Assembly: GCA_017537165.1 (NCBI GenBank)
Contig: JAFYLI010000125.1
Span: 1 to 63,178, forward strand
Source of the DNA: Oscillospiraceae bacterium
GTDB taxonomy: Bacteria; Bacillota; Clostridia; Oscillospirales; Oscillospiraceae
Direction: 5' to 3'
DNA length: 63,178 nucleotides
Both the position numbers and the translations under genes were made by a program. Every line of letters begins with the position of its first letter. Positions within the stretch are counted from its first letter, which is position 1. The notes beneath the pieces were generated by a model. That model was not told the DNA's origin. It worked only from the letters and a program-made list of their open reading frames with translations, and searched no databases. Shown piece by piece: positions 1 through 19,120 of the stretch.

Positions 1-450
1 AAGATTAGCGGCAGAAATACCTGCAGCTTCTCCGCTTGCATTCGGGAATTCGATGGTCAGGGAGCCATCGCCTACAAATGAAAGATCTTTGTTGAGGCTG
101 GAGTCGCCTGCGTAAATACCGATACCGTATTCCTCATCAGTACAAATGATCTTATTTTCGCCAATCAGTTGAATATGTAGGTCGATCGTTGAATACACCA
201 CGGTATCTTCATACTCAATGGTAGCATTGTTAAGGGTGAGGAGGTTGTTGCTTTCATCATAGTACACAGTGCCGTCACCCAAAATATCGTCGTCATTATC
301 TCTGTTAATGGCTACACCGGCAACATAAATGCCATACGGGTCTTTTGCAAAATACAGACAGAAGAAAAAGGCAAAAAATGCACTGATAAGCATAGTAATT
401 GCAAGTAAAATACTAATGATAATCCTAAAGATTTTTGTTCCCTTTGTCAT
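1..450 (-). CDS. hypothetical membrane-anchored protein, N-terminal 150 codons only (ORF runs off the window start)
   Basis: ATG at 448-450 preceded by a GGAAAGGTG RBS. The minus strand is open down to position 1. N-terminal hydrophobic helix IIISILLAITMLISAFFAFFFCLYF. Absent from the ORF track because there is no stop codon in the window. Confidence 0.5.
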   Translation of the reverse strand, partial: MTKGTKIFRIIISILLAITMLISAFFAFFFCLYFAKDPYGIYVAGVAINRDNDDDILGDGTVYYDESNNLLTLNNATIEYEDTVVYSTIDLHIQLIGENKIICTDEEYGIGIYAGDSSLNKDLSFVGDGSLTIEFPNASGEAAGISAANL

Positions 451-2490: not shown

Positions 2491-2694
2491 ATGCAAACGC
2501 TCAAATTGACTCCGGAGAATATCAAAACCTATTACCGGTTGATCTGCGCTATGTTTCATTCTAGGGCTGTTGAGCTTGCAAGGAACGAGGTGCAGCGCGC
2601 AAAGAGCGTTTTAACCAGCGAAGAATACGCCACGCTTGTGAAGTACCTCTCGCAGGATGAAAGCCTTTCCCAAAGTCAGCTTTTTACTGAATGA
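2491..2694 (+). CDS. small hypothetical protein (67 aa)
   Basis: One of the few plus-strand ORFs not shadowed by a minus-strand gene. It ends upstream of the bidirectional terminator at 2762-2802. The RBS is weak. Confidence 0.3.
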   Translation: MQTLKLTPENIKTYYRLICAMFHSRAVELARNEVQRAKSVLTSEEYATLVKYLSQDESLSQSQLFTE

Positions 2695-2761
2695 CGGGCT
2701 CTCCAATTCCTGTACGATAGTTTTGTACCCCAAAGTATTTTGTGCTTATTTGCGCCAAAGT

Positions 2762-2802
2762 AAAAAAGGGCTTGTATCCAGAACAGATACAAGCCCTTTT
2801 AT
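2762..2802. terminator. bidirectional intrinsic terminator
   Basis: Perfect 13-bp stem AAGGGCTTGTATC/GATACAAGCCCTT (2766-2778 / 2786-2798), flanked by an A-run and a T-run. Confidence 0.8.
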
Positions 2803-2841
2803 TCGTCCTTCAAGTTTTTCTTCGTTCTTATAGATTAGTTC

Positions 2842-5790
2842 CTAACGCTTTTTGTTTTTTACAAGGTTCTCTGCCTCTGTTATTTGATGCTTCTTTGCGA
2901 TCCACTCTTTACGGCGACGATGCCACCGGACAGCGCAGAACACAAACAATCCCCAGAAGACAAGCGCCAGCACAAACGCCACCTTGACAGGCGGGTATAT
3001 GATTTTGGAAATTACCGTATCGGGGCCAACTCCATTCATGGCTGCGGAATTTACCAAAGCATACAGTCCGCGGTGGCAAGCTTCCCGCATAAGTGTGCGG
3101 ATATATGGATCGTTTTCATACTGCTCGAAGTTCAACAGCAACGTCAGGGATGCATCAAAAACGGTTGTTCCGCCGCGCAGACCGTCCGCAGCAGTGATGT
3201 AGTCGGTAGCAACATTGTCGGTAATGATCCAGCCATCGCATCCCCACTCATCGCGAAGGATACCCTGAATGAGAGCAGAGTTTCCACCGGACCATATAGC
3301 ACCCCAACGGGTATAGGCAGACATGACACCATTTGCATTTGCCTCTTCAAAGGCTTTCTGGAATGCTTTCAGATAAATCTCACGGGCTGCCTGCTCCTGA
3401 AGCCATACGCCCAGTCCCTGTCGGTCTGTCTCGCTGTCGTTGAGCGCAAAATGCTTGAGCAAAGTCGTTACGCCCAGTTTCTCAACAGCGGACACATAGG
3501 ATGCTGCCATCTCGCCGGAGAGGAAGGGGTCCTCTGAGAAATACTCAAAATTGCGTCCACCGTAGGCAGTTCGATGCGTATTGACACCGGGACCGTAAAG
3601 CGCCGAAATGCCGTAACGCAGGCAATCATTGCCAATCACAAAGCCTACCTGATGGATCAGTTCATTGTTAAAGGTGGAACCCATAACAAAGGGCGATGCA
3701 AAAGCAGTGGCAGACTGCTCGCCTGCCATATAGGAGGTGTTAAGTCCTGTCGGGCCGTTCTCGTCACGCGTTCCGGGAGATTGGATGGATTCTACCGCAC
3801 TGCGGCCATGGAATGCGTCGCGAATGAAATCCACCATTTCATCAAAACTCATCTGATCCAGTAGCGGCTCCCAATCGGGATCGTCATAGCTTTTGCTCAT
3901 CATGTCGTACAGGCGCAGACCGTTGTCTGCCTCCGTTGTAGGCATGGGGTAGAGATTCATATCGATCTCCGAGGGGTCGTAGTGGTTCGGCTGCAGATCT
4001 TCTATGAGCAGCTGTGTCAACGCTACTTTGGCATTTTCTGTGGGGAATGTACCTGTCCAGTCCGAGCGGCTGAGCCATGTCACGGTACTGTCAGAACCCT
4101 CATAAAGATTGGGATCGGACGATGATAGCTTCGTGGTAATGTCAGCGCCCGACACAGATACGGAATATGTCTGCGTGTCGGTTTGTGCCTCATTCCAAGT
4201 GTATACCATTTTGGTATTGCCGTTGGCAGTCATAGCACCTTCGGTGTTCTCCGGGGTGTAACCACGAACAGCCAGTGTATTATTCACGGCCTCATGGGCA
4301 TTATGGGCAACAGTGAGGTAATAGTCTCCGGCTTCCAGAATATATGTACCGTAGCCGTAGGTGTCGAAACTGGCCAGTTCCCGTCTGGGAACCGAGATGA
4401 TCAAGGTCTCGCTTTCACCGGGCGCAAGCAACTGGGTTTTACCATAGCCGCACAGAATAACCGCAGCTTTCTCTACGCCCATTTGCCGGTCATATTCGGT
4501 ATACGGGCTGTTGCCGTATATCTGCACGACATCTTTTCCCGGCAGTTTTCCAATATTAGTGACGGTAATGCTTATTTCAAAAGCATCCTGTACAGCATCA
4601 TAGTGAGTGTTCATACTATCCCACTGAAAATCTGTATAACTCAAACCGTAACCGAATGGGAAAGCCACGACATTTTCGTATTGATAGTCACCTGCATTGC
4701 CGGTGCCCATAACGAAATCTTCATAGCGGGTTTCAAAATAGCGATAGCCCACATAGATACCTTCCTGGTACACCTGATAGGCATCTGCGTTATCAGGTAC
4801 TCCCAACTCGATTGCATTTTCATAAGTCACGGGAGTGAAATTCCACATGGCAGGCGCAGCAAGGTTATTGTAACACCATGTATCGGACAGACAACCGGAG
4901 GGCGAAGCTTTTCCTGCGAGGATTTCAGCCAAACTGTTGAAACCGTACTGACCCGGTGTGCCCAACAGCAAACAGGCGTCCACCTGAAAATCCTGCAGGA
5001 ATGTCATTTCGAGGGGGTTCGTCGCATTTATGATCACTACAACGCGGTCGAACACGCCTTCCTCTCGCAGATGGCAAATCTGACGCATCATATCCTGCTC
5101 AGTTTCGTCCAGCTCCAAATAATTAAACGGATCATAATTAATGTCGCTGTTTTGACCACCTACGCGGGAAAACACAATAACCGCTGCATCGGAGTAATCA
5201 GTGAAGGAAGCCAACACCTGTTCTGTGTAGTCCTCCCACGGTGCTTCGTACTGCTGAGAAGTCGATGGCGCATACATAGCATCCTTGCGCATTTTGCTAT
5301 TGGGGATTTCGTTGTAAAAATCCCACAACTGAGGGTTGACGATAAAACCTTCTTTCTCCAGCGCCTCTTTCAGCGTATCGGCGTTACCTGCGTCCACTTG
5401 ACCTGATCCCGCACCGCCAAGCACAGGATTAACCGATGAAGTAGAAAAGAGGCTGATCCTGCTGCCTTCCGGCAGAGGCAGAGCATCCATTTGGTTGGAG
5501 AGCAGTACAATTCCTTCTTCGGAAACCTGGCGGGCAACGCTCTCGCCGTATGTCAAAGCCTCGGCCTCATCAGAAATTGCTGCAGGATAATAAATCGCAG
5601 AGGGATCTGCGTTTTCCATCTTCCAGGTCGATCCGGGCAGTACGAGCATAAAGTCGTTATCCAGAATGTGCATCATGGGCACAGTAACGCTGAAACACAG
5701 TGCAAACACAAGACACCAAATTGTCAGGCTCTTCCAAGGACGAAGCGCCCTGCGTTTTTCTTTTCTTTCGGTTTTGTTCATTTTCTCCAT
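2842..5790 (-). CDS. glycoside hydrolase family 3 (beta-glucosidase/beta-xylosidase-like), anchored by TM helices at both termini
   Basis: 982 aa with an AAGGAGAG RBS. GH3 catalytic-domain motifs KHFALNDSETDR and GWIITD lie near the C-terminus. GH3 C-terminal-domain-like and GYGLSYT segments lie nearer the N-terminus. TM helices at both ends (SLTIWCLVFALCFSVTV; VAFVLALVFWGLFVFCAV). Confidence 0.85.
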   Translation of the reverse strand: MEKMNKTERKEKRRALRPWKSLTIWCLVFALCFSVTVPMMHILDNDFMLVLPGSTWKMENADPSAIYYPAAISDEAEALTYGESVARQVSEEGIVLLSNQMDALPLPEGSRISLFSTSSVNPVLGGAGSGQVDAGNADTLKEALEKEGFIVNPQLWDFYNEIPNSKMRKDAMYAPSTSQQYEAPWEDYTEQVLASFTDYSDAAVIVFSRVGGQNSDINYDPFNYLELDETEQDMMRQICHLREEGVFDRVVVIINATNPLEMTFLQDFQVDACLLLGTPGQYGFNSLAEILAGKASPSGCLSDTWCYNNLAAPAMWNFTPVTYENAIELGVPDNADAYQVYQEGIYVGYRYFETRYEDFVMGTGNAGDYQYENVVAFPFGYGLSYTDFQWDSMNTHYDAVQDAFEISITVTNIGKLPGKDVVQIYGNSPYTEYDRQMGVEKAAVILCGYGKTQLLAPGESETLIISVPRRELASFDTYGYGTYILEAGDYYLTVAHNAHEAVNNTLAVRGYTPENTEGAMTANGNTKMVYTWNEAQTDTQTYSVSVSGADITTKLSSSDPNLYEGSDSTVTWLSRSDWTGTFPTENAKVALTQLLIEDLQPNHYDPSEIDMNLYPMPTTEADNGLRLYDMMSKSYDDPDWEPLLDQMSFDEMVDFIRDAFHGRSAVESIQSPGTRDENGPTGLNTSYMAGEQSATAFASPFVMGSTFNNELIHQVGFVIGNDCLRYGISALYGPGVNTHRTAYGGRNFEYFSEDPFLSGEMAASYVSAVEKLGVTTLLKHFALNDSETDRQGLGVWLQEQAAREIYLKAFQKAFEEANANGVMSAYTRWGAIWSGGNSALIQGILRDEWGCDGWIITDNVATDYITAADGLRGGTTVFDASLTLLLNFEQYENDPYIRTLMREACHRGLYALVNSAAMNGVGPDTVISKIIYPPVKVAFVLALVFWGLFVFCAVRWHRRRKEWIAKKHQITEAENLVKNKKR

Positions 5791-6144
5791 CGCTTTTTTT
5801 CTCTCCTTGGATAGCGTCTGAGTTTTAGTTATAGGAATTTTAGCAAGCGGTCTGTGTAACAGATAAATATTTCATCATACATCTCCTGCTCATCATGCGC
5901 GCCGTCTTGCGTGACAGCAAAAAATACAAACGCTTTTGTATTATTTAATATATCATAAAAGCCATTTTAAACAAAGAACTTGCTCACTATTTTTTGAACA
6001 GCGGGCAGTATCAATTTAATGACCCTTTATTTTACCACAACCAGCAAAAAATTTATCGTACTAATAGGAGAGAACGCTTTTATTATAACTGGATGCTGTA
6101 CCATACAGAATAACAACACACAAAATACATAAAACACTTTGCGA

Positions 6145-6196
6145 AACTCCGCTTGGGAGCAGGATGCCGCAGGTTCGAATCCTGTCACTCGGACCA
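6145..6196 (+). other. tRNA-like 3' fragment (T-arm, acceptor 3' strand, discriminator, CCA) with no 5' half
   Basis: GCAGG-TTCGAAT-CCTGT T-arm (6169-6185), CACTCGG, A, CCA (6186-6196). The complementary 5' acceptor strand CCGAGTG is absent from the roughly 400 nt upstream. Confidence 0.5.
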
Positions 6197-6197
6197 T

Positions 6198-6243
6198 ATC
6201 GAGTGTTCATAACGGATTTGAGTTATGGACACTCGATTTTTTT
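6198..6243 (+). terminator. terminator-like hairpin at the left junction of the element
   Basis: 16-nt arms ATCGAGTGTTCATAAC / GTTATGGACACTCGAT (one mismatch) followed by TTTTTTT. It overlaps the left inverted repeat of the element. Confidence 0.5.
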
Positions 6244-6299
6244 GCAATTTCGAGTTTCTTCGTTATGTACTGAGCAGGTTTTAAGCCTGCTCTTTTGTT

Positions 6300-7994
6300 T
6301 TATGCGGATTTGGTAATATACTCGACGGCTACACCTTTTCGTGTGTCTGACTTGTAATTACTTCCGCATTCGGGTATCTCAATATACCCAATAAACTTGT
6401 AATGAATCATCATCCTCTGACTGCGATTTTTACCAACGCCTTCAGTTTCATAAACCGTTATCTCATCTATAAGTTCCCGAAGAAGCGGTGCAGTCAGTTT
6501 TTGCATTTCCATAAATCTTCGGATAGCGTTGATAAACCTGTCTTTGTTCTGTTGCATCGTACCAAGATTGTTTATCCTATCGTTTAGGGTTGCAATCTTG
6601 CTTTTCAGTTCCATTCGCTCAACTTCGTATTTGTGGGACAACTGCATAAACCATTCATCCGTCACCTTGCCCGAAGCATTGTCCTCATAGAGCTTTTCGT
6701 AAAGCTCGGCAACCTTTTGGTTTCGTGCCGTACAGCGTTGTAGTTCGCTTTGTAGAGCTTTTTGCTCGTTGATAATATCCTTTTGTGTCTTTTGAGCAAG
6801 TAGGTCTGCAAAGGCTTCCTCGTCGCTCTGCAAGAACATCGCCATTCGCTTTAGTTCAAGCATTACAACTTGTTCTATGGCATCGGCTCGGATATAGTGC
6901 CTTGACTCACAAGTACCTCTTGTATCCACCTTGTAATTGGAGCAACTGAAATACTGAATATCCTTGTTTATGGTGTTTACGTGCGACCATAACTTGCTAC
7001 CGCAATCGGCACAGTAGAGCAAATCACAAAACATATTCTTTGGAGCGTTATCCGCTTTCGGTGCTCGGCGTTTGGTTTTCTTGGTGAGCTTCTGTACCGC
7101 TTCAAAGGTTTCACGGTCGATGATCGGCTCGTGAACATCCTTGAACACCACCCAATTTTCTTCGGGGTTAGGAATACGGGCTTTGTTCTTGAACGACTTT
7201 GAATAGGTCTTGAAATTGATTACATCACCACAGTATTCCTGCTGAGCAAGTATCTTGGCTATGGTTGATTTGCACCATTTGTACGGATTAGGCTGTGCTT
7301 TCTTTCCTCCTCTGCCAAGACCTTTTTCTCTCCAATAAGCCATTGGGATTAACACTTTACGTTCTTGCAGAATACGGGCAATGGTTTCGTTGCCTTTACC
7401 CTCCAAACACATACGGAATATATCTTGCACCACTTGTGCTGCTTCGGGATCTATAACCCATTTCTTTTTGTTTTCGGGAGCTTTCAAGTATCCGTATGGT
7501 GGCTGAGATAACGGCTCTCCTGCGTTACCACGAAGTCTGTGGGAGCTTCTGACCTTACGGCTAATATCTCTTGCATACATCTCATTCATAACGTTACGAA
7601 AAGGTGCAAGTTCGTTTTCGCCGTCTGCACTGTCCACACAGTCATTTACTGCTATAAAGCGGATATTTCTGTCGGGAAAGTAGGTGTCGGTGTAATATCC
7701 CACTTGCAGATAATCTCTGCCGAGTCGGGACATATCCTTTACGATAATCACGCTTACATATCCCATTTCAATATCCTCAAGCAGTTTTTGAAAGCCGGGG
7801 CGGTTAAAGTTTGTTCCCGTATAACCGTCATCCACATAACTGCGGGTGTTGGAGAAGCCGTGTTCCTTTGCGTATTTCTGCAACAGTTTCTTTTGATTCA
7901 CGATAGAATTGCTATCGTTATCCGTTCCGTCATCACGAGATAGTCGGCAGTATAAAGCAGTTATGCCGACATTATCTTTTTTCTTCGACTGCAT
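6300..7994 (-). CDS. large serine recombinase (resolvase/invertase catalytic domain plus recombinase and zinc-ribbon/coiled-coil C-terminal region)
   Basis: 564 aa. The N-terminus YCRLSRDD...IVNQ...VIIVKDMSRLGRDY is the classic serine-recombinase catalytic core. A Cys-rich segment (CDLLYCADCGSKLW...CSNY) follows. Confidence 0.9.
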   Translation of the reverse strand: MQSKKKDNVGITALYCRLSRDDGTDNDSNSIVNQKKLLQKYAKEHGFSNTRSYVDDGYTGTNFNRPGFQKLLEDIEMGYVSVIIVKDMSRLGRDYLQVGYYTDTYFPDRNIRFIAVNDCVDSADGENELAPFRNVMNEMYARDISRKVRSSHRLRGNAGEPLSQPPYGYLKAPENKKKWVIDPEAAQVVQDIFRMCLEGKGNETIARILQERKVLIPMAYWREKGLGRGGKKAQPNPYKWCKSTIAKILAQQEYCGDVINFKTYSKSFKNKARIPNPEENWVVFKDVHEPIIDRETFEAVQKLTKKTKRRAPKADNAPKNMFCDLLYCADCGSKLWSHVNTINKDIQYFSCSNYKVDTRGTCESRHYIRADAIEQVVMLELKRMAMFLQSDEEAFADLLAQKTQKDIINEQKALQSELQRCTARNQKVAELYEKLYEDNASGKVTDEWFMQLSHKYEVERMELKSKIATLNDRINNLGTMQQNKDRFINAIRRFMEMQKLTAPLLRELIDEITVYETEGVGKNRSQRMMIHYKFIGYIEIPECGSNYKSDTRKGVAVEYITKSA

Positions 7995-8231: not shown

Positions 8232-9128
8232 TTACCTTTCATCACGATTTTTTCTTGCTCGTTCACGGCGTTGATAATCTTCGCCAATGAGCTTTAAGAT
8301 TGCATTATATACATCTTTTTGGGTATAACTCTTAGGGAAGAAACGGCGGACATCTTCAAAGGGAAAACTGATACGTTCCTTTTGGTTTGCCTTTTCTTCA
8401 CTCATAACGGCGAAGATCTTATCCGCATTTAGCTGACCTGTTTGAGATAATTTCTTTAGCCGCATTGACTGCGAGAGTGACGGAGTGCAGTCCTCACTCT
8501 CAATGATACTCATTAAATCGTACTGCTCCTGTTCTTTGATATAGGATAACTCCACAGCAGGAGTAAGTGCGATTCGTTCTTCATCCACAAGCTTTAACAG
8601 TTCAGGGATAAGGTTAGTTAAGCGAATATAGCGAAACACTTGGTCACGGCTTTCGTTTGCCACTTTGCCAATCTCGGTAGCGGTATCCGACTTTGTCGCA
8701 ACTTGCGACGAGGTTAAATCGGTTCGTTTGCCTTGCTCTTTCAGAGCCTCCATTTTCATTTTGTAAGCGAAGGCTTTTTCGCTCGGTAAAATCCGTTCTC
8801 GATGCAGATTGCTGTCCACAACGGCAATCGCCGCTTCGGTTTTGCTATAGGGATAAATTAAGGCTGGTACTTCTGTAAGTCCCGCCCTTTTACTTGCGTG
8901 TAATCTTCGGTGTCCCGATATTACTTCGTATTCATCGATGGTATTATCTTTCAGTCTTACGATAAGAGGGGTGATAATGCCTTGCGACTTAATACTTTCC
9001 ACAAGTTTCTCCATATCCTCATTGTCTGTAACTTTGAACGGATGACCGTCAAAATCGTGCAGTTTATCTATGGGGATACGGGCGGACTTTTTCTTTTTGC
9101 TTCCATTTGGAATTTCATACTGTGTCAT
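8232..9128 (-). CDS. ParB/Srx-like nuclease-domain protein
   Basis: Motif IITPLIVR...YEVISGHRRLHASKRAGL (ParB N-terminal domain). I prefer the ATG at 9126-9128 because it has an AAAGGAGA RBS; the ORF-track start at 9245 has none. Confidence 0.8.
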   Translation of the reverse strand: MTQYEIPNGSKKKKSARIPIDKLHDFDGHPFKVTDNEDMEKLVESIKSQGIITPLIVRLKDNTIDEYEVISGHRRLHASKRAGLTEVPALIYPYSKTEAAIAVVDSNLHRERILPSEKAFAYKMKMEALKEQGKRTDLTSSQVATKSDTATEIGKVANESRDQVFRYIRLTNLIPELLKLVDEERIALTPAVELSYIKEQEQYDLMSIIESEDCTPSLSQSMRLKKLSQTGQLNADKIFAVMSEEKANQKERISFPFEDVRRFFPKSYTQKDVYNAILKLIGEDYQRRERARKNRDER

Positions 9129-9172
9129 AGATTTTAATCTCCTTTCTGTATTTGATTTCTTAGAATGGGGTT

Positions 9173-9188
9173 TTAGGGATATCCCTAA
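9173..9188. promoter_or_regulatory. perfect 16-bp palindrome TTAGGGATATCCCTAA about 45 nt upstream of the ParB-like start (candidate operator)
   Basis: Read directly from the sequence. Direct repeats AATTACTCC (9244-9252, 9269-9277) and a 9-bp inverted repeat ATAGGAGTA/TACTCCTAT (9208-9216 / 9272-9280) lie next to it. Confidence 0.4.
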
Positions 9189-9461
9189 CGAGTACTGTTT
9201 TGCGCCGATAGGAGTACAAACAGTCTGCTCGCTAAGATGATGCAATTACTCCGAGCCTTTTCAAGGTTAATTACTCCTATTAGCGCTTTGCCGTTCTCCC
9301 GAATGTCCGTTAATTCCTAACCCATAGCATCTCTATACATCGTTTTCGCTCGCTCTTTAAGAGGTCTTGGCGTAGTATCTACATTCGGCAACGGGTATTC
9401 AATTTTCAAAGTGCAACTGAGGTTATATGTCACATTCATATTTCGGCTAAGTAGTCCAGAG

Positions 9462-9729
9462 AAAAAATAAAAAGCCGTTATGTATCAACACTAATCATCG
9501 ACGGGAGCGTTTAGCTCTCGCTTCAAATCAGATGCTCATACATAACGGCTTTGAATTAATTCAAAAGACCATACTGTTTGTGTTGACTCAACTCCACCTT
9601 AAACAGTACAAAAAATTCACGGTGGCGAGTCACGGTTTTCTCAAAAGAGATTACCGGCGGTATAGTGGACTTGTACCTAACTACACCTCTACGAGGACAT
9701 CATATTCAGTTGTAATCCCTCTGTGAGGG
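9462..9729 (-). ncRNA. candidate stand-alone structured RNA of about 270 nt, class unknown
   Basis: Lies between a near-consensus promoter (9736-9765) and a long hairpin plus U-run (15-bp perfect stem 9471-9485 / 9538-9552). It has no ORF longer than 7 codons on that strand. It contains several internal hairpins, and one G-U pair works only on the minus strand. Confidence 0.5.
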
Positions 9730-9735
9730 TATTTC

Positions 9736-9765
9736 AGTATACATGACAGAACATTCGTTTGTCAA
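9736..9765 (-). promoter_or_regulatory. sigma-A-type promoter: TTGACA, 18 nt, TATACT
   Basis: The minus strand reads TTGACAaacgaatgttctgtcatgTATACT. Confidence 0.6.
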
Positions 9766-9836
9766 GAGATTTTGTCGCAACACGAACACTTTTTAGTAAA
9801 CGCCCTACAAAACACAAAATCCTACTGTTAATAAAA

Positions 9837-10436
9837 TCACTTGTTTTCAATCCATTCCCAAATATCAATTAGGTCAATGTATATAATTCCTTCTTCAACC
9901 TCGTAATGTTTTTCACAAGTTGTTCTTGTCAAACCTTCATCATCAATAAATTCTAACGCTTTAGTTATTGCCGACAAAGCGTGCATATTGTAAAACGTTC
10001 TATCGTCACTTGAAGAAGCATCTCCTCCATTATATCCATTTCCTTTATAAACACCTTCTTCAAAGTAAGCAAACTCAGAATCATTTTTGGTGCTATATAA
10101 TATGACATAACCCAAAGTGTTTTCATCGTGTCCGTAGTATTTTTTTGAAATGCAAACGACAGCATTTATCTCTTTAACATTATCAATTTTCTTGGTTTCT
10201 CTAATGTATTTAGCCGCTTCCGATTCTATTGGACCCCCAGCAAACAAGCTAACACAGACTACGCAGATCACAATAACCGCTGCAATTGCGCCGATACCTA
10301 TTAATTTTTTCTTGCCGATCTTTTTAATTTTATCAAATACAGACTCTTTTTTATGTAAGACACATCCACAGTGAATACACACTTTAGATGTATCAGAAAT
10401 TTCTTTTCCACATTCAGGACAATTAAATAATGCCAT
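9837..10436 (-). CDS. zinc-ribbon / single-TM / extracytoplasmic-domain protein (paralog 3)
   Basis: 199 aa. N-terminal CPECGKEISDTSKVCIHCGC, then a TM helix (LIGIGAIAAVIVICVVCVSLFAG), then a C-terminal domain of about 130 aa. Confidence 0.75.
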   Translation of the reverse strand: MALFNCPECGKEISDTSKVCIHCGCVLHKKESVFDKIKKIGKKKLIGIGAIAAVIVICVVCVSLFAGGPIESEAAKYIRETKKIDNVKEINAVVCISKKYYGHDENTLGYVILYSTKNDSEFAYFEEGVYKGNGYNGGDASSSDDRTFYNMHALSAITKALEFIDDEGLTRTTCEKHYEVEEGIIYIDLIDIWEWIENK

Positions 10437-10455
10437 TATAATACCTCCGATTCAT

Positions 10456-11016
10456 TTAATCTTTCGTTAACGACGCTTGCGAATACTTTACATAACTATA
10501 TCCTGTTGGATAATCGTCTTTGGGTATAAGCGTAGAACAAATAACTTTTTCACCACTTGACACAGACGGCAAAGACATCAATTGGCTATACATTAAATTG
10601 CCACTCTTGTCATAAAAACCAACATTAAAATATCCGTGAACAGTAAAGCTGTTATTGTTCCGTACTTCACAAGACATTTTTCCGCCGTGCGCTCCCAAAC
10701 TTGCAGAAAAATTCGACATTTTCAGATTATTAAAAATTGTAGAAGCATTTGCGGAATTGTCTGAGGAATAAGAGTTGTGATAGTTGTAAGTACTTTCTTT
10801 ATTTGTGTTTGATTCCCCAATTTTAACAAAAACTATAAGACATATAATTGCTACTATGCAAACAAGGAACACAATCGGTCTTTTTGTGATGTAATCAATT
10901 GCTTTGTTAAAAAGTTGGTTATTATTTTGTTTCGAGATTGTATATCCACATCCCGGACATTGAGGCGCTGAATCAGAAACTTGTCTGCCGCATTCGGGAC
11001 AATTAATGAGTGCCAT
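10456..11016 (-). CDS. zinc-ribbon / single-TM / extracytoplasmic-domain protein (paralog 2)
   Basis: CPECGRQVSDSAPQCPGCGY, a TM helix, then a beta-rich C-terminal domain. I prefer the start at 11014-11016 (GGAGGG RBS 7 nt upstream) over 11031. It overlaps the upstream gene's stop codon. Confidence 0.75.
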   Translation of the reverse strand: MALINCPECGRQVSDSAPQCPGCGYTISKQNNNQLFNKAIDYITKRPIVFLVCIVAIICLIVFVKIGESNTNKESTYNYHNSYSSDNSANASTIFNNLKMSNFSASLGAHGGKMSCEVRNNNSFTVHGYFNVGFYDKSGNLMYSQLMSLPSVSSGEKVICSTLIPKDDYPTGYSYVKYSQASLTKD

Positions 11017-11440
11017 TGGATGTCCCTCCATCGTTTTTCAGTTTCTTTAACCCTTTATACAATCCGACGCCGCCGACAATTGATAAAATCACAGCGCCAA
11101 CGCTATGTAATGCCACATAAGTAACCGCTTCGTTATACATTTCTTTCCACCGGGATGCAAGAGAAGCATAACTGCTACCCAAAAATCCACTACTATGAGA
11201 TTTTGTTTCTGCATACTGATCTGCATAATATGAAATATTCTCAATATAGTGGCTAAATTCACTGGTTGTTACAAGAGAAATTGCAACAATAATGAGAACA
11301 ACGCTTACAACTATTCCTATATAAGCTTTCTTTTTTGTTTCAGCACTAATGTGTGGTTTTGCAGACAACATATACCCACAGTTTGAACAATATTGCGCAG
11401 TATCAGCCTGTTCCTTTTTACATTCAGGACATATAATCAT
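11003..11440 (-). CDS. zinc-ribbon membrane protein with two TM helices (paralog 1)
   Basis: 145 aa. CPECKKEQADTAQYCSNCGY plus two hydrophobic helices. GAGGGAGG RBS at 11450-11457. Confidence 0.75.
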   Translation of the reverse strand: MIICPECKKEQADTAQYCSNCGYMLSAKPHISAETKKKAYIGIVVSVVLIIVAISLVTTSEFSHYIENISYYADQYAETKSHSSGFLGSSYASLASRWKEMYNEAVTYVALHSVGAVILSIVGGVGLYKGLKKLKNDGGTSNGTH

Positions 11441-11727: not shown

Positions 11728-11802
11728 AAAAATGTCGAATTTAATTCTTATAATCAAAATCTCAACTACATATTTTTTTGTAATTAAGGTATAGTTTTAT
11801 AG

Positions 11803-11842
11803 AAAAAACGGCTTAACACCAATTAATGCTAAGCCGTTTTTA
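11803..11842. terminator. bidirectional terminator after the 398-aa gene
   Basis: AAAAAACGGCTTA...TAAGCCGTTTTT: an 8-bp stem flanked by an A-run and a T-run. Confidence 0.7.
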
Positions 11843-11864: not shown

Positions 11865-13061
11865 TTAATTTAGAGATAACATTTCATTTAACAATACTTG
11901 GTATATTTCCGGCAGAGAAACAATCATTAATTTATACCACGTTTCTTTTGTGAACTCGCCATTTTCAATACACCATATTTTATAGTGTAAATCTCTCGTT
12001 TCCGTGTACTGGTCAATAGGTATTCCATTTTGACTATCTGTATATTTCTGTAAGTAAACATCTCCGTTGTATTGATTTTGAGTATAGTCAATGTGAGAAA
12101 ATCTATCTTTTTGAGGATAATACATCCCGTGCAAAAAGGTGGTAATAACATATCCGTTGGCTATATTCCTGTACGGCAATGTTTCTATCTCTATGTGCCA
12201 AAATTCTTCGTTTGTTTTCTGATCTACCCCTTGTTTAATTACCATAAGCAATTTATCTGATGTGTTTTCATCTATATGTACGATAATAGTCTTCTTCCCG
12301 GTGAGATTGCTTTTTTGAAAACTAAAATTAGGGCCACGGAATTTTGCAAAAGGAACACCGGTATAATCGTAATATTCTGCCTCCGGTACAGACAATCTTT
12401 CATCAATACGATATAATATATCACAATTATCAGTTTCGTCTTTTATTATTTTTGCAAACCCAACCATCTTATCGTATGGACTTAACATCGTCTTATTAGT
12501 AAATAAATTATAGTAATATCCTTTCCCGTCAAAGATAAGGCCATCTTTCTTAAAAATAGCACCATTCACATTTGTTAATCCGTACTGATTTGTTGAATAT
12601 ATAAACTCTTCTTTACCAACGATTTCTCTTATATCAATCTTGCTTTCATATAAATTATCAAACACAAATGACACTACGATTAGCGCAAGTACTTCCATAT
12701 CAACCGCATCAACAAACGGTGTTATTATTTTTTGTTTATCAATCAAACTCATAAAATCCATTGACGATAATTCTTTCTTTGGCTTAAACAAAGTAATTGC
12801 CAAGAAATACGAACAATGAGATGAGTCGTTTTCAATCATATATTTTAGCAACATATCAACATCAATGTTGCATTCTTGGATTTGGTTTATTATGTAATCT
12901 CTGAATGGAATCATAAAAGGATCAATACATCCTCTTTCTGGTTTCATAGCGTAATATAATCCCATACGCATACGTATAGCCAATCGTTTATACATAATTT
13001 CTTGACATTCTTTAGATTCTGACATTTTTAAGAGAAAAAGTTCCGATTCCATAGCATACAC
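11865..13061 (-). CDS. 398-aa protein of unrecognised family, partner of the cyclase-like gene
   Basis: Long AT-rich ORF. Start candidates are GTG at 13059-13061 and ATG at 13050-13052, 7-16 nt after the upstream TGA, which suggests translational coupling. I recognise no TM, TIR, nuclease or nucleotide-binding motif. Confidence 0.75.
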   Translation of the reverse strand: MYAMESELFLLKMSESKECQEIMYKRLAIRMRMGLYYAMKPERGCIDPFMIPFRDYIINQIQECNIDVDMLLKYMIENDSSHCSYFLAITLFKPKKELSSMDFMSLIDKQKIITPFVDAVDMEVLALIVVSFVFDNLYESKIDIREIVGKEEFIYSTNQYGLTNVNGAIFKKDGLIFDGKGYYYNLFTNKTMLSPYDKMVGFAKIIKDETDNCDILYRIDERLSVPEAEYYDYTGVPFAKFRGPNFSFQKSNLTGKKTIIVHIDENTSDKLLMVIKQGVDQKTNEEFWHIEIETLPYRNIANGYVITTFLHGMYYPQKDRFSHIDYTQNQYNGDVYLQKYTDSQNGIPIDQYTETRDLHYKIWCIENGEFTKETWYKLMIVSLPEIYQVLLNEMLSLN

Positions 13062-13067
13062 CCATTT

Positions 13068-13805
13068 TCATTCTATTGATAATCTAAATTTTCTATCCTG
13101 TTTTTGATCTTTCTCATCCAATGCTTGGTTTATGTAATTCATATGCCACCAAAGTTTTTGACGAACTTTGTCCGGATAGGTACCATCTTTTTTTATTGCC
13201 TCTGTTTTCATCTGTTCGAATGCGGCTTGAACAAATTCTCCTGCATAACTCCAAATGGTCATATAATTTAAAAAGCATTGACCATCAGTATCTCTTCTTA
13301 CATAATCAGCATCAATTTTAGTTATAATCTCAACCACATTGTCATCCAAAACAACTCTTGGATATACTGCAATTTTATCCTCTAATTCATAAGCTCTTAC
13401 TAACGCAGAACCCCAAACCACCATATCATCAATATAAAAATCTCCAATAGTAACACCACCTCTGACAAGCCATCCAACGCTATCTCCAACAGACGAACAT
13501 AAGAAATTAGAAACACAACCCAATAACGATAAAACATCATTGTTGATGTTATCACTTATTTCTTTGGCAATGATAATATTATCGGAAAAGATTTTGAATT
13601 TGATATCCGCAAATTTCTTTATACCGTTTTCGGATGCCAAACTCATTGTATGCTTGTATAGGTTATATAAGAGATTTAAGGAATCATCTTGTGCAATTTT
13701 ATTTTCTCTAATACGATTTGTTGCGCCAAGAATATCTAAATAGGCAACAATATATCTTTTGGTTTCTCTGTTATATGGATCAACAGCTTGATTGATTTTC
13801 ATCAT
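13068..13805 (-). CDS. minimal nucleotidyl-cyclase-like (class III cyclase/GGDEF-type palm fold) protein
   Basis: 245 aa. Motifs occur in canonical order and spacing: YLD24ILGAT, KIFSD75NIIIA, VRGGVTIGDF, VWGSALVRAYELED, AVYPRVVL. The protein is divergent: the canonical Asn/Arg pair is not evident. Confidence 0.6.
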   Translation of the reverse strand: MMKINQAVDPYNRETKRYIVAYLDILGATNRIRENKIAQDDSLNLLYNLYKHTMSLASENGIKKFADIKFKIFSDNIIIAKEISDNINNDVLSLLGCVSNFLCSSVGDSVGWLVRGGVTIGDFYIDDMVVWGSALVRAYELEDKIAVYPRVVLDDNVVEIITKIDADYVRRDTDGQCFLNYMTIWSYAGEFVQAAFEQMKTEAIKKDGTYPDKVRQKLWWHMNYINQALDEKDQKQDRKFRLSIE

Positions 13806-13834
13806 TATCGTTCCTTTTTTATTGTATTTTAGTT

Positions 13835-13843
13835 ATTATACCA
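13835..13843 (-). promoter_or_regulatory. extended -10 promoter element TGGTATAAT for the cyclase-like operon
   Basis: The minus strand reads TGGTATAAT about 30 nt upstream of the ATG at 13805. The -35 element (TAGATT, 17-nt spacer) is weak. Confidence 0.45.
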
Positions 13844-13872: not shown

Positions 13873-13902
13873 ATAAAAGACGGCAGAGATTTCTCCCTGC
13901 CG
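13873..13902 (-). terminator. intrinsic terminator after the TnpV-like gene
   Basis: CGGCAG/CTGCCG stem (13881-13886 / 13897-13902) followed on the minus strand by TCTTTTAT. Confidence 0.55.
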
Positions 13903-13912
13903 CCGTTCTCGG

Positions 13913-14290
13913 TTAGTTATAAATTATATCGTTATTAACGATTTCCGTAACTCTGTTGCGTATGTTGTTCATCCGAGCTATCCACTCCATTTGATGATCC
14001 GCTTTGAGTTTTTCTGTAACACCCTCACGCTCAGCCATCTGTTTTACGAGCCGAAAAAACATATCCTCAGCCTGCTTGTCAAGATCAGCGAGGTATCCGT
14101 TCAATTTGCCACTTGTCAGCAGATTGATGTATAGGACTTTCCTGTGTTGCTTTATGTATTTTAGGTGTCGCTGTCCCCACAAACCGATAGTTTTATCTTC
14201 TTGTTCGGGGAGTGCAAGATCAGGCAAATAATAATCGCCTTGCAAAGTATAGCTAATGCCCGTTTGTTCATTGTAAATACGCTTTTCCAT
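13913..14290 (-). CDS. TnpV-like transposon-encoded protein
   Basis: 125 aa. The pattern YYLPDLALPEQE...GLWGQRHLKYIKQHRKVLY...GKLNGYLADLDKQAEDMF...MAEREGVTEKLKADHQMEWIARMNNIR matches the TnpV family as I remember it. Confidence 0.7.
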   Translation of the reverse strand: MEKRIYNEQTGISYTLQGDYYLPDLALPEQEDKTIGLWGQRHLKYIKQHRKVLYINLLTSGKLNGYLADLDKQAEDMFFRLVKQMAEREGVTEKLKADHQMEWIARMNNIRNRVTEIVNNDIIYN

Positions 14291-14292
14291 AA

Positions 14293-14484
14293 TTAAGCCT
14301 CCTTGTATACCACTTTGAATTTCTTTTGTTTTGCGTTAAGGATTTTTAGTAACACTTCATCAACCGCATCGGTGTATTTACCGTCTGCAATAAGTTTGTT
14401 TCTCTTTTCGTTAAGGCAGTTAATAATCGTTCCTCTCTCGTAATCATCAAGCGCTATGTAGTACTTCTTTGACATATCTTTCAC
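14293..14484 (-). CDS. small conserved element protein (63 aa), function unknown
   Basis: Tightly packed between neighbouring genes (2-nt gap downstream, 4-nt overlap upstream). Confidence 0.55.
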   Translation of the reverse strand: MKDMSKKYYIALDDYERGTIINCLNEKRNKLIADGKYTDAVDEVLLKILNAKQKKFKVVYKEA

Positions 14485-14780
14485 TCCTTTAACAAATCCT
14501 TAAACGGAGCTTCGGTTGATACGAAAGTATCGTATGTAAAGTTTGCTCCCAATCGAAATCCCATAATAAAACTGTCGAGATTCGATTCTCCGTTGACGAT
14601 GCTCCAAGCATTAACAAAATCAAGAAACTTCTTTTTGTTTTCACCCGTTAGTGCTTCAGTCAGAAATTCCTCGTTGAGCATTAGAACTTCCATCTGCTTT
14701 TGAACTGTCTTGTTCTGCTTGGTGCTTCTTGCTTGTGGATCGATGTTGCCGTAATAGAATTCTTCAATAAATTTTGACAT
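14481..14780 (-). CDS. small conserved element protein (99 aa), function unknown
   Basis: I prefer the ATG at 14778-14780 (MSKFIEEF..., GAGGAAA RBS) over the ORF-track start at 14879. Confidence 0.55.
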   Translation of the reverse strand: MSKFIEEFYYGNIDPQARSTKQNKTVQKQMEVLMLNEEFLTEALTGENKKKFLDFVNAWSIVNGESNLDSFIMGFRLGANFTYDTFVSTEAPFKDLLKE

Positions 14781-14917
14781 AATCTTGTTTCCTCGTTTCT
14801 GTAATTTAATTTTACGAAGAAACTTTAAAATACACAAATGTGCGAATGAAAAATATGTGTGTTTCTGCCGGTAATTCAACGCTTTTTAATCAAGTCCGTT
14901 ATGAACCCCCGCACCAA

Positions 14918-15061: not shown

Positions 15062-16450
15062 TTGAAAAAGCAACACAAATTCCTGTCACTTTTGATTGCC
15101 ATCATTATGGTACTTTACTTATCCGTTCCCGCATGGGCAGCTGATGATTTGATCACCTCGCCTGCCCCCGTGGAACAGCCCAGTTTCTCCATAGGAGGTT
15201 TAGACAATAATGTTTGGGTCACCAAATACGGCAATCTGTACTGCGATTGTTCCGCAGACGCTTTCACAGCGGCAGTTTTCACTTGGGGCGACATAGTTAC
15301 TGTAAAGATTCTTGACCACGAGTTGGTACTCCCCGTTGTTCCTGCCTATTCCTATGTAGATACAGGTGCCTCCGCCATCATCATGGGCAAATCCGAAACC
15401 GGTGATGCTACCGGCTACATATCTTTCGCCATCAACATGGGCAACTTCGCAGAAACCTACGGTATTGCCACCAAGCAGAACGATGCCGATGGCAACTGGT
15501 ATTGGACGGCCATGGAAGGTGTAACCTTCCCCATAACCGTATCCTTTGAGATGGCTGAGCAGGGCGGCTACATGGCAGAGTATCTGCTGCGCGATCTCAT
15601 CCGCACCAATGCCCGCGAGGATTACGCAGACCTCAGCGACGAAGAGTTTGCTAACTTCCGTCCCATTACCACCGGCGGCATGAGCGAAGGCGTACTGTAC
15701 CGTTCTTCCAGCCCCATCAATCCCAAGCTCAACCGCAACACCTACGCTGATGCCGCCATCAACGCAGCGGGCGTAAAGACCATCGTCAATCTGGCAGACA
15801 ACATATCTGTTGCCGCCGAATATGAAGGTTTTGCTTCTACTTATTATGCTGCTCAAAATGTTGTATATCTGTCGCTGGGTGCAGACTTCCAGGCCAATGA
15901 TTTCAAAACAGGTCTGGCCGCTGCCCTGCGTCACATAGCCACCAACGAAGGCCCCTACCTGATCCACTGCACCGAGGGCAAGGACCGCGCCGGTTATGTC
16001 AACGCTATACTTGAGTGCTACATGGGTGCCACCTATGATGAGGTCGTTGCAGACTATATGCGTACCTATATCAACTACTACGGTGTGGAACTCGGCAGCG
16101 AGAAGTACGATGCCATTGCCAACAGCAACATAGTTAAGACTCTGCAGCAGACATTCAATGTAGCAGATCTTTCAACCGCAGATCTGCAGGCATGCGCCGC
16201 AGCCTACTTCAAGTCCATCGGTCTCACCGATACCGAGCTGGCAGCTCTCACCGCCAACCTGAGCGAGGACTACACTCAGGCCGAGCAGGCATCCTACACC
16301 GTAGCAAATGGCGACTCTCTGTGGAAGATCGCAAAAACCGTGTGCGGCAAGGGCTCCATGTGGAAGGCCATCTATGATGCCAATATAAACATCGTCAAGG
16401 AGCCCAACCTCATTTATGTTGGCCAGACCTTGATTCTTCCCGCAGCATAA
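15062..16450 (+). CDS. secreted protein with a CX5R tyrosine-phosphatase-like domain and a C-terminal LysM domain
   Basis: TTG start with an AAAGGTGG RBS. Signal peptide ending in PAWA. Active-site-like HCTEGKDRAG. LysM motif YTVANGDSLWKIA...YVGQTLILP. Confidence 0.75.
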   Translation: MKKQHKFLSLLIAIIMVLYLSVPAWAADDLITSPAPVEQPSFSIGGLDNNVWVTKYGNLYCDCSADAFTAAVFTWGDIVTVKILDHELVLPVVPAYSYVDTGASAIIMGKSETGDATGYISFAINMGNFAETYGIATKQNDADGNWYWTAMEGVTFPITVSFEMAEQGGYMAEYLLRDLIRTNAREDYADLSDEEFANFRPITTGGMSEGVLYRSSSPINPKLNRNTYADAAINAAGVKTIVNLADNISVAAEYEGFASTYYAAQNVVYLSLGADFQANDFKTGLAAALRHIATNEGPYLIHCTEGKDRAGYVNAILECYMGATYDEVVADYMRTYINYYGVELGSEKYDAIANSNIVKTLQQTFNVADLSTADLQACAAAYFKSIGLTDTELAALTANLSEDYTQAEQASYTVANGDSLWKIAKTVCGKGSMWKAIYDANINIVKEPNLIYVGQTLILPAA

Positions 16451-17413: not shown

Positions 17414-19120
17414 TCAGCGCATTACCTCTGCGCTGTATTCAGTCATTCCAAAGAAGAACTTTCTCTGTCTTTCATTAGAGATTATGTGGACGGGTTTTAC
17501 CTGAGTGGACGCGGTTCCCTTGGCGATCATCATGTCTTTATACAGCAGATAGGTTTCGGGTTCAAGGAAGTTGAGGCGAGTATCGCCGCAAACTTTGGAC
17601 TTTACCTTTTGGCCCATAGAAGGGTTGGCTTCGGCTATATATTTCTCCAGAACTTCGCGGATGATTTTGGGGTTAAGCTCAGAAGGAACATTTTCGACCT
17701 CTACAAAATACTGATAACGCACGGGAACGGAGTTCATGTCAGGGTATACGGAATAATCGACAAGAGTGAAGCCAAGTTCATCAGCTGTGTTTTGGATGGC
17801 AGCGGTAAGAGCCTGCTCGGAGGTCTTTTCGCCCATGATACTTACAAGATGGTCTCTACGGGTAGAGTATGTAAGAGTGGGGGTGTTCTTGAACTTGCCT
17901 GCAATACGGACTATATCCTTCATTCTGTAACGGCACAGACCTGAGGTGTTTGTAACTATCAATTCGTATTCCTTGCCTTCTTCCACTTTATCCAGCGTAA
18001 CGATCTGAGAGAAGTCGTCATCAGCTTCCAAGGGCAGGAATTCATAGAATACGGAGTCAGGAATGATAACCGTGTCATCTCTGTCCATAGCATAAGCGAC
18101 CGTGAACAAACCCTCAGATGCGGCGATGCCGAACTTCAGCAGACGAATACCGTCATCGCCAATATAGCGCTCGTTCATCATCTTGTACTGGGCAGCAAAG
18201 GAGCCGGAGGCAATACCGATTACAAAACGCATCTCAGGCCACAGTCTTTTCATGATAGGTGTTTCAAAACCTTCTTCGAATATGGCTCGCAGCTCTGCCG
18301 CACGCTCTGGCATGGGCTTAAGCTCATTTTCCAGCTTTGCACGGACATCCTCGGGCATACGGATGGATGCGTCTATTGTACCCGTTTCTATATCATGGCA
18401 AAGCATCTTCCACTCTTTTTCGATATATCTCATCTGCTCCAGCAGGAAGCTGAAGAAGGTACCATGCAGGCAAACTGCACCCTTGTCCATCAAGGCATAT
18501 CTGGCATGGAGATAACGAGTGTTGGTATCACCGCGGGGATAGAGAGCCTCATCGGGAGCGGTGAAAATATCGGGCAGCTTGGAACGCATGGATCTGGACT
18601 GCTTCTGAGAAATCGCGCCAAAAGTAGCACCGCAGGGCAGATACTGCTCCTTGTCGGTAGCTTCCATAAGTCGAATATGTCTGCCATTTGTGAAATCGGG
18701 GCCAATGGTACTCTCGATGACACCCAGATGGCAGTACTCGGTGTACTGAACGAAAGTTTCAAGAGCTTGGTCGCTCATAGGTATACGCTTTGGGGTTCCG
18801 GTTGTGCCGGAGGTTCTGTTGTAGTGGTGAATATCCTCGGCAAAGAAAAGACCGTTTTCGCCATTTTCGGTCATTCTAAGGATATACTCTACGTAGTCGT
18901 CATATGTGGTGATAGGCATTTTACGCTGGAAATCTTCAATGGAGTGCATATCCGCAAAACCCATTTTCTTACCGAACTCTGTGTCTTTGTTCATCTCCAG
19001 CATCTGCATAAGCAATGCCTCATTGTGTTTCATAGGGTCCTCGCAGATCTCACTGAGGTGGGCAAAAACTTCCTTGCCGATCTCAAGATTCTGCAAATTG
19101 GTCTGTTTTGTCTTATCCAT
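17414..19120 (-). CDS. GH3 (Gretchen-Hagen-3) family acyl-acid amido synthetase-like adenylating enzyme
   Basis: 568 aa. P-loop-like NRTSGTTGTPKRIP, and the overall length and pattern match bacterial GH3 auxin-responsive-family proteins. Confidence 0.7.
   Translation of the reverse strand: MDKTKQTNLQNLEIGKEVFAHLSEICEDPMKHNEALLMQMLEMNKDTEFGKKMGFADMHSIEDFQRKMPITTYDDYVEYILRMTENGENGLFFAEDIHHYNRTSGTTGTPKRIPMSDQALETFVQYTEYCHLGVIESTIGPDFTNGRHIRLMEATDKEQYLPCGATFGAISQKQSRSMRSKLPDIFTAPDEALYPRGDTNTRYLHARYALMDKGAVCLHGTFFSFLLEQMRYIEKEWKMLCHDIETGTIDASIRMPEDVRAKLENELKPMPERAAELRAIFEEGFETPIMKRLWPEMRFVIGIASGSFAAQYKMMNERYIGDDGIRLLKFGIAASEGLFTVAYAMDRDDTVIIPDSVFYEFLPLEADDDFSQIVTLDKVEEGKEYELIVTNTSGLCRYRMKDIVRIAGKFKNTPTLTYSTRRDHLVSIMGEKTSEQALTAAIQNTADELGFTLVDYSVYPDMNSVPVRYQYFVEVENVPSELNPKIIREVLEKYIAEANPSMGQKVKSKVCGDTRLNFLEPETYLLYKDMMIAKGTASTQVKPVHIISNERQRKFFFGMTEYSAEVMR

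Follow-up and report, generated by a model that had tools for sequence, protein, structure and literature searches.

A divergent class III cyclase-fold gene and an adjoining gene without structural match are most likely stacked cargo of a Tn4451-like element

Introduction

Do two genes that share one promoter and one terminator in the cargo of a mobile element also work together? This question is raised by a locus in the window, by which we mean the whole stretch of 63,178 nucleotides analysed here (Oscillospiraceae bacterium, assembly GCA_017537165.1, contig JAFYLI010000125.1). On the minus strand of an integrated element in the window lie gene A (13068..13805), encoding a protein of 245 amino acids (aa), and directly downstream of it gene B (11865..13052), encoding a protein of 395 aa. 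An initial annotation, made from the sequence alone, regarded A as a cyclase-like enzyme and B as its new effector or sensor, which together would form a nucleotide-signalling pair of the defence type. We found that this annotation was partly supported, and that its headline, the pair, was mostly not supported. The locus is most likely to be read as stacked cargo and not as a dedicated cyclase–effector system, and tight operon linkage in mobile-element cargo alone does not indicate a functional pair.

Results

Homologues of A (n = 262) and of B (n = 468) were collected, and co-occurrence was determined by searching all six-frame open reading frames (ORFs) of 150 loci, referred to below by L numbers, with the profiles of both families. 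The A-family loci (n = 56) came from look-up of named homologues (2) and from one genome per species (54), and the B-family loci (n = 94) from look-up (5), metagenomes (80) and viral sequences (9). B was present in a single A-family locus, L003, which is a 94%-identical copy, and none of the 94 B-family loci had an A relative within 5 kb. The initial annotation had proposed a conserved pair of signal generator and effector, and had itself named a failure of the homologues to co-occur as a refuting result. With co-occurrence in 1/56 and 0/94 loci, and with the pair confined to a small terminal clade, a conserved, dedicated A–B pair is not supported, because the two families almost never co-occur.

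Close relatives of either gene were also found alone. Three further copies of B (82%, 77% and 75% identity), on long contigs from gut metagenomes or draft assemblies, had no A beside them; two of these lie 3' of a CHAP hydrolase gene, one of them ending a type IV secretion system (T4SS) operon, and the third has ABC-transporter genes before it. When the window was compared with these copies by blastn, the similarity ran from 13060/13064 to 11863/11864, which corresponds to the B cassette with its Shine-Dalgarno (SD) sequence and nothing else. Likewise, no B was present beside the A copies of 64-65% identity (L004, L005). Pairs of A and B were located only in the window, L003, L163/L164 and L165. 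In a neighbour-joining tree of B the paired copies formed one small terminal clade, which also holds the unpaired L151 and L152, and the A–B junction was homologous in all four diverged copies. As there is one terminal B clade and one homologous junction, the pairing arose once and recently, with the unpaired state ancestral for both families. A and B are separate, independently mobile cassettes that have been joined once. That one shared partner might go under different names was considered and rejected, as a 385-aa protein encoded beside A relatives in Paenibacillus is unrelated to B (hhalign probability 0.1).

Based on its predicted structure, A is a true but divergent class III cyclase-homology (palm) domain. 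The AlphaFold2 model, for which 32 homologues were used as input, had a predicted local distance difference test score (pLDDT) of 91 and a predicted template modelling score (pTM) of 0.90, and showed the beta-alpha-beta-beta-alpha-beta palm fold at approximately residues 16-180, followed by a C-terminal helical extension (181-245). Foldseek gave 82 matches in the PDB at E <= 1e-3, of which the best 50 were catalytic domains of class III adenylyl/guanylyl cyclases or proteins resembling cyclases; 1azs_B ranked first (E 1.5e-6), and TM-scores over these 50 were 0.6-0.72 when normalised by target length. The assignment of A to a cyclase fold and not to a non-cyclase fold, for which the initial annotation had suggested this check, was thereby borne out.

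The cyclase-type motifs that had been read from the sequence lie on the correct structural elements and, of all positions in the A family, show the highest conservation. D24 (YLDILGAT) ends strand 1 (residues 16-26) and is followed by GAT, D75 (FSDN) lies in the beta2-beta3 hairpin between strands 68-73 and 76-82, the R115-G-G-x-x-x-G motif is on the next long strand after the hairpin, and W131-G132 leads into a helix that ends at L141-E142. Invariant positions in 32 relatives were D24, D75, R115-G116-G117, W131-G132 and E142, and in the alignment extending to 25-30% identity F73-S74-D75-N76, R115-G116, L135, E142, P149-R150, K217 and W220. In two alignments D24 was present in 32/32 and 22/23 sequences, and D75 in 32/32 and 23/23. 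With the equivalence of this Asp dyad to the metal Asp residues of class III cyclases inferred from motif and strand position, A keeps the C1-type half of the cyclase site, consisting of two metal-binding Asp, a Gly-rich triphosphate loop and R115 on the RxGxxxG strand.

Compared to the class III cyclase homology domain (PF00211, Guanylate_cyc), A has the same palm fold (Foldseek E ~1e-6) and the same order of motifs, namely the strand-1 Asp with GxT, the hairpin Asp, RxGxxxG and WG-helix-LE. However, neither PF00211 nor any other Pfam model matched A or 23 diverse relatives at E up to 10. The transition-state Asn/Arg pair was indeed missing, as had been noted initially: V136 and E140 stand at those sites in a by-eye alignment anchored on WG..LE, and the corresponding columns of the family hold V/L/I and E/D/K/Y and are nowhere conserved as N/R. 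The family has specific invariant residues instead (E142, P149-R150, D172/D174, K217 and W220). Further differences are that base-specifying residues are not recognisable in A, that the C-terminal helical extension of ~65 residues carries the invariant K217 and W220, and that the protein is small and stand-alone, without a sensor domain. No model of Pfam, NCBIfam or PADLOC matched A, and phmmer and hmmsearch of A and its profile against PDB sequences gave nothing. PHROG 23933, whose function is unassigned in PHROGs, matched A at 2.7e-22, and the UniRef label of a 47%-identical relative (P0088, UniRef100_A0A1I0Q011) is 'Guanylate cyclase domain-containing protein'. A represents an unnamed, cyclase-fold family that occurs across bacteria and archaea.

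Members of the A family were recurrently embedded in or adjoining known defence systems, in line with the defence-type setting suggested for A at first. In 7 loci the relatives are flanked by hsdM and hsdS of Type I restriction-modification (R-M) operons, where neighbouring genes overlap or are separated by very few nucleotides and the relatives occur as 1-3 tandem paralogues; these operons belong to Methanosarcinaceae, Methanocorpusculum, Methanomethylophilaceae, Paceibacterota, Gastranaerophilales and Firmicutes. The toxin gene ToxN/AbiQ lies directly 5' of an A relative in 9 loci, and in one locus GmrSD is followed by an A relative. Other genes found close to single relatives were a DUF2971/PDC-S31 gene 17 nt downstream (one locus), a GDSL lipase gene that overlaps the A relative (one locus) and, in two Paenibacillus loci (L002, L012), the gene of a TIR-like protein 32 nt downstream. 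In approximately 30 of ~45 informative A loci there was no co-directional neighbour within 60 nt. Distant plasmid copies were solitary as well, one of them on an Agrobacterium plasmid, in an island that also carries AbiEii, PLD, and AAA-ATPase and UvrD-helicase genes, and another on a B. cereus plasmid. Neither A nor B matched any of 50,697 phage genomes, and IMG/VR gave few matches (5 for A and 9 for B, some near contig ends); a phage origin was rejected on these grounds.

Several of these loci showed features of their own. Two or three A paralogues are present in R-M operons of archaeal and bacterial metagenome-assembled genomes (MAGs; L035 2063-3858, L038 4949-6744, L041 3174-5494 and L044 5947-7543), and in L043 the A-like paralogues (534-1319 and 2529-3156) flank hsdS instead of standing in tandem. 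The Asp dyad is kept in all copies of the R-M-embedded paralogues, and tandem paralogues might form C1/C2-like heterodimers. The ToxN/AbiQ loci (L017, L019, L020, L023, L025, L027, L028, L034 and L036; ~5370-6738 in most) are from mouse-gut Lachnospiraceae and Eubacterium. Their gap between toxin gene and A relative is 7-217 nt, being 7 or 69 nt in 7/9 loci, and a small convergent ORF of 79-93 aa comes next in most, so that the arrangement looks like a recurrent three-gene block. The Paenibacillus neighbour (L002 8764-9921, L012 6771-7928) is a 385-aa protein with a weak N-terminal match to CAP12/Pycsar-type TIR (E 1.1e-3; motif NVLVELGYA), whose C-terminal ~270 aa are uncharacterised. A relative and TIR-like gene are here the best candidate in the A family for a genuine cyclase-plus-effector pair.

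For B the AlphaFold2 model had a pLDDT of 88.8 and a pTM of 0.84, and consists of a helical domain at the N-terminus (1-147) and, towards the C-terminus, long antiparallel beta strands that form a meander and are followed by helices. Neither the PDB nor BFVD gave a Foldseek match for this model (best E 0.48 and 0.034, respectively), phmmer and hmmsearch of B and its profile against PDB sequences gave nothing, and no domain was recognised by Pfam, NCBIfam, PADLOC or PHROGs, which confirms the annotation of B as a protein without a recognisable domain. The invariant residues cluster on the C-terminal strands (H286-x-E288-x-E290, H308, H320-I-D322 and H356-Y-K358-x-W360-C361-x-E363-N364), and in the model the His, Glu, Asp and Lys on these strands suggest that one face of the sheet is enzymatic or binds a ligand. 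A full hidden Markov model scan of 1.84 billion representatives yielded 193 B clusters, which are single-domain-architecture proteins of ~390-455 aa or fragments; no fusion partner and no protein above ~455 aa was seen among the 150 of 193 clusters listed. One 90%-identity cluster alone was found on 434 contigs.

Assignments of B to known folds were tried and rejected. A PD-(D/E)xK nuclease, a CYTH/triphosphate-tunnel enzyme (from the HxExE strand), a 2H phosphoesterase (from the repeated H-I-D/E strands) and an SRPBCC/helix-grip ligand binder were guesses from reading motifs and had no Foldseek support; the best Foldseek probabilities (0.1-0.4) were for short beta-barrel or StARkin matches. 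B was also rejected as a membrane protein, because its sole hydrophobic window (113-131, KD19 = 2.1) has a core of only 11 residues with acidic flanks and lies inside a confidently predicted helical bundle.

B usually resides in conjugation operons of Firmicutes, in defence islands or at an end of an integrated element. In T4SS operons the gene orders were TrbL-B-ArdC or CHAP-B-DUF6664. The corresponding slots in conjugative elements of Firmicutes are L058/L059 6001-8111, L154 5069-8651 and L151 84-3225; one slot lies between TrbL and an ArdC-like gene, and in the other the CHAP hydrolase gene precedes B and DUF6664 comes after it, an order that recurs in L151. Some B relatives adjoin large serine recombinases at the ends of elements. 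Other neighbours were a STAND-TPR NTPase, an AAA_11/12-DUF2726 helicase, a DUF1016 nuclease, an MmeI-type R-M system with T5orf172 and a BREX-like island, and no neighbour family was constant across the B loci. The defence association of the B family was weaker than that of A, with T4SS operons also among its homes. An unusual accessory-gene site was seen in L146 (3114-5957, an IMG/VR contig), where a B relative lies 54 nt 3' of the gene for the large terminase subunit. No match to B was found by tblastn in 72,556 plasmids.

In the window A and B form a self-contained transcription unit with a putative promoter element of its own, a terminator 3' of B and a terminator-like hairpin on the other side. 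The extended -10 element TGGTATAAT, the putative promoter element of the unit, was confirmed by direct reading on the minus strand (13843 to 13835), 30 nt 5' of the start of A. A consensus scan did not score TGGTATAAT and instead gave an overlapping sigma-70-like site, TTGAGA-16-TAAAAT (13853-13826). The intrinsic terminator that had been proposed 3' of B was found at 11798..11841 on the minus strand (17-bp stem and T-run); by RNA folding, its hairpin (11841-11804, followed by the T-run) had -21 kcal/mol and z = -5.86, a fold matched by 0/200 shuffles. On the upstream side of the promoter a terminator-like hairpin 3' of tnpV (13879..13904, minus strand; 11 pairs, 7 of them G-C, with a TTTTATAATA tail) closes the tnpV gene, and the A–B unit is self-contained because of these two structures. 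As the spacer between A and B is 13-15 nt long and without a terminator, co-transcription of the two genes is likely.

Both minus-strand ORFs of the initial annotation were present, with B at 11865-13061 if it is read from GTG; the start of B and the claim that it has no good ribosome binding site did not hold. Reading from GTG 13061 gives 398 aa and reading from ATG 13052 gives 395 aa. The start was placed at ATG 13052 because the homologues of B have 393-395 aa and begin with ME(S/P)ELF. The GTG (13061-13059) lies inside an SD-like GGGTG (13059..13063, minus strand), 6 nt before this ATG. Three diverged junctions (L003, L163 and L165) have AGGTG/AGGTA as the conserved equivalent of this SD sequence.

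Discussion

The locus is best read as two accessory genes stacked in one cargo region; that these are autonomous and that A is enzymatically active is a statement we believe about as much as we doubt it. Additions to the same region support the stacking, since L003 has two extra genes between tnpV and A, and SIR2_2 and Mrr-type genes are found around A–B in L163. In the mechanism that we propose, A, which would probably be a dimer, would bind a nucleoside triphosphate (NTP) with two Mg2+ and catalyse its cyclisation or a related nucleotidyl transfer. It may be an autonomous single-protein module of the defence type, acting by abortive infection, with either the nucleotide that it makes or the consumption of NTPs as the means. 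Its trigger would be infection or, much as PrrC guards the Type I R-M system EcoprrI, the inactivation of a neighbouring system. In a minority of lineages a tight downstream gene may use the product of A (TIR-like, GDSL lipase or DUF2971 and, in this clade, B). B itself would have an independent accessory role, in defence or in establishment.

The position of A relatives between hsdM and hsdS in 7 loci resembles that of defence genes embedded in R-M systems, such as PrrC in EcoprrI. They differ in that A is a cyclase palm and not an ABC-ATPase/anticodon nuclease or GmrSD, and the copy of A in the window lies outside any R-M operon. Genes within Type I R-M operons have been recognised as defence genes before, as for TgvAB of V. 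cholerae VPI-2 (PMC11411939), and embedding between hsdM and hsdS was used to discover both TgvAB and the HEC systems, the latter with further candidates by guilt-by-embedding (bioRxiv 10.1101/2024.01.29.577857). The main text of this preprint makes no mention of a cyclase-fold family.

Several points weigh against reading the locus as two independent genes with A in defence. The defence role is drawn from gene neighbourhood only, and ArdC, an anti-restriction gene, lies beside B in L058, as two ArdA genes lie 3' of A in L021/L022. A literature search for a stand-alone or R-M-embedded cyclase-fold defence gene found none described. We know of no stand-alone class III cyclase that defends on its own. 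A and B have been kept together through ~20% amino-acid divergence on two backbones, the TnpV elements and the tyrosine-integrase element of L165, which is the behaviour expected of a functional cassette. Finally, the tight and variable effector-like genes that sometimes follow A relatives (TIR-like at 32 nt, GDSL lipase by overlap, DUF2971 at 17 nt) resemble the variable-effector pattern of signalling systems.

The last two points lead to the alternative of a signalling pair limited to this clade, in which A would make a nucleotide messenger on infection and B, as a novel effector or sensor, would kill or arrest the cell, giving a new Pycsar-like system. We consider this unlikely, though not far-fetched. 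Between a common promoter and a common terminator the two genes are separated by a junction of 13-15 nt in which the SD sequence is kept, and the arrangement is retained at 76-94% identity on at least four contigs and two element backbones; however, the closest unpaired copies of B (82% identity) lie without A in conjugative elements, and the two families do not otherwise co-occur. The invariant polar residues on the C-terminal beta-sheet of B could line a ligand-binding or active site, but domains of the cNMP-binding, CARF/SAVED or TIR kind are missing from B, as is a convincing transmembrane segment. Tight effector-like partners of other A relatives would fit a variable effector, whereas most relatives are solitary or inside R-M operons without an effector. 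A is like the Pycsar cyclases in being a cyclase-fold enzyme found in defence islands or mobile elements, and the TIR-like gene of the two Paenibacillus relatives adds to this likeness. In contrast, no PycC model matched A (PADLOC-DB 2.0.0, E up to 10), B is not a TIR, transmembrane or cNMP-binding protein, and the A family has no conserved effector partner, with B missing from 55/56 A loci. Nor did any Pycsar, CBASS or other PADLOC model, the use of which had been suggested with the initial annotation, match A or B. As far as the loci surveyed show, A–B lacks the co-occurrence that defines pairs of the Pycsar and CBASS type.

A role in counter-defence or establishment, by which A and/or B would aid the survival of the mobile element after its arrival in a new host, such as through interference with host immune signalling or restriction, is improbable. 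Both families are carried by transposons, conjugative elements and prophage ends, and B relatives lie in T4SS operons directly before an ArdC-like gene or 3' of a CHAP hydrolase gene, although conjugation operons also carry defence cargo, such as SpbK/YddK of ICEBs1. The two ArdA genes 3' of A in L021/L022 point in the same direction, whereas an anti-defence gene would be out of place in the positions of A relatives that are flanked by hsdM and hsdS in chromosomal R-M operons or adjoin ToxN/AbiQ and GmrSD, and neither A nor B was matched in the phage genomes.

We give little credence to A being a pseudo-cyclase, that is, a nucleotide-binding sensor or regulatory domain without turnover whose output would pass through contacts with the Type I R-M complex or B, as suggested by the missing Asn/Arg pair (V136/E140 sites never N/R in the family), by a significant fold match of A to PDB 6yii, an ATP-binding protein of P. 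aeruginosa that is like a class III cyclase, and by R-M embedding with overlapping stop and start codons, which suggests physical coupling; against it, the Asp dyad and the phosphate-binding Arg are essentially invariant to 25-30% identity, a signature of retained catalysis, and the GGDEF and Cas10 palm enzymes work without an Asn/Arg pair.

Two further known systems were compared with the stacked genes. A resembles the mCpol/Panoptes enzymes as a minimal palm-domain nucleotide enzyme of the ~200-250 aa class beside a variable neighbour. However, no Cas10 or mCpol entry was among the best 50 of its 82 fold matches, its hairpin is FSDN and not GGDD/GGDEF, and B lacks the features of a two-transmembrane beta-barrel effector, its sole hydrophobic stretch being the 11-residue core in the helical bundle. 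At the level of fold and motif, the ranking of folds and the FSDN hairpin speak against membership. The second system is lactococcal AbiG, whose proteins AbiGi and AbiGii have ~249 and 397 aa. Like A–B it is a two-gene operon in low-GC DNA with protein sizes almost those of A and B, and AbiGii, like B, is without a structural match (PMC13064643). Nevertheless, the Pfam AbiGi/AbiGii and PADLOC models match neither A nor B. Lactococcus was not among the ten genera named for the plasmid matches of A, and the plasmid search with B gave nothing, so that an AbiG identity was rejected and the similar size is taken as coincidence.

If A relatives do defend, they would be a cyclase-fold module outside the Pycsar/CBASS/mCpol rule of one enzyme with one cognate effector, as they are often alone or in R-M operons, archaea included. 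The questions would then be by what means a cyclase domain on its own detects infection, and what role its product has. It is a doubtful, more far-reaching proposal that the A family is a new, widespread bacterial and archaeal immune module, a stripped-down class III cyclase that works alone or as an R-M guard and whose product is read by lineage-specific partners, here B as a nucleotide-activated effector of new fold. B represents a compact and well-predicted mobile-element family of gut Firmicutes without a structural relative in the PDB or BFVD, which makes it a clean target for the assignment of function.

Carrier element and neighbouring genes

The element in the window extends from ~6.3 to 14.9 kb (~8.6 kb), and its similarity to the element of L003 ends at 14916. 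The carrier resembles Tn4451, because it encodes a TnpX-like serine recombinase, TnpV and DUF6809. The TnpX-like large serine recombinase (6300..7994, minus strand; Resolvase, Recombinase, Zn_ribbon_recom and DUF4368) is at the left-hand end. It is followed by further cargo on the minus strand (8232..11440), B, A, the TnpV gene (13913..14290, minus strand; Pfam TnpV, 1.6e-48), a 63-aa ORF and, at the right-hand end, the DUF6809 gene (14481..14879, minus strand; Pfam DUF6809, 4.4e-21). The further cargo comprises a ParB-like gene (8232-9245) and three tandem zinc-ribbon genes (9837-11440), whose products of 199, 191 and 145 aa each have an N-terminal zinc ribbon and then a hydrophobic segment. 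That A and B lie in the AT-rich cargo of a mobile element, as initially annotated, was confirmed for this TnpX/TnpV-type element, with a GC content of 0.32-0.35 over 10-14 kb of the window vs 0.45-0.52 in the flanks.

The slot adjoining tnpV behaves as a cargo hot spot that gathers defence-type genes. L003, from a goat-rectum MAG, is the same element with the two extra genes between tnpV and A at 3953-5890. In L163 a 1215-aa SIR2_2 gene precedes A–B and a 734-aa Mrr-type gene follows it, and in L165 A–B is on a tyrosine-integrase backbone. The extra genes of L003 encode a weakly AAA/STAND-like ATPase of 349 aa and a protein of 294 aa without a match, and may be another two-gene defence candidate. 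In this stretch of L163 (2733-12411) the SIR2_2 protein is bracketed by two TnpV genes and the 734-aa protein is Mrr_cat/NA-iREase1, making this a TnpV-type element loaded with defence genes. Outside the element in the window, host genes encode a protein with Y_phosphatase3, LysM and SAM_HAT_C-like domains (15062-16450, plus strand) and a GH3-family, acyl-adenylate-forming protein (17414-19120, minus strand).

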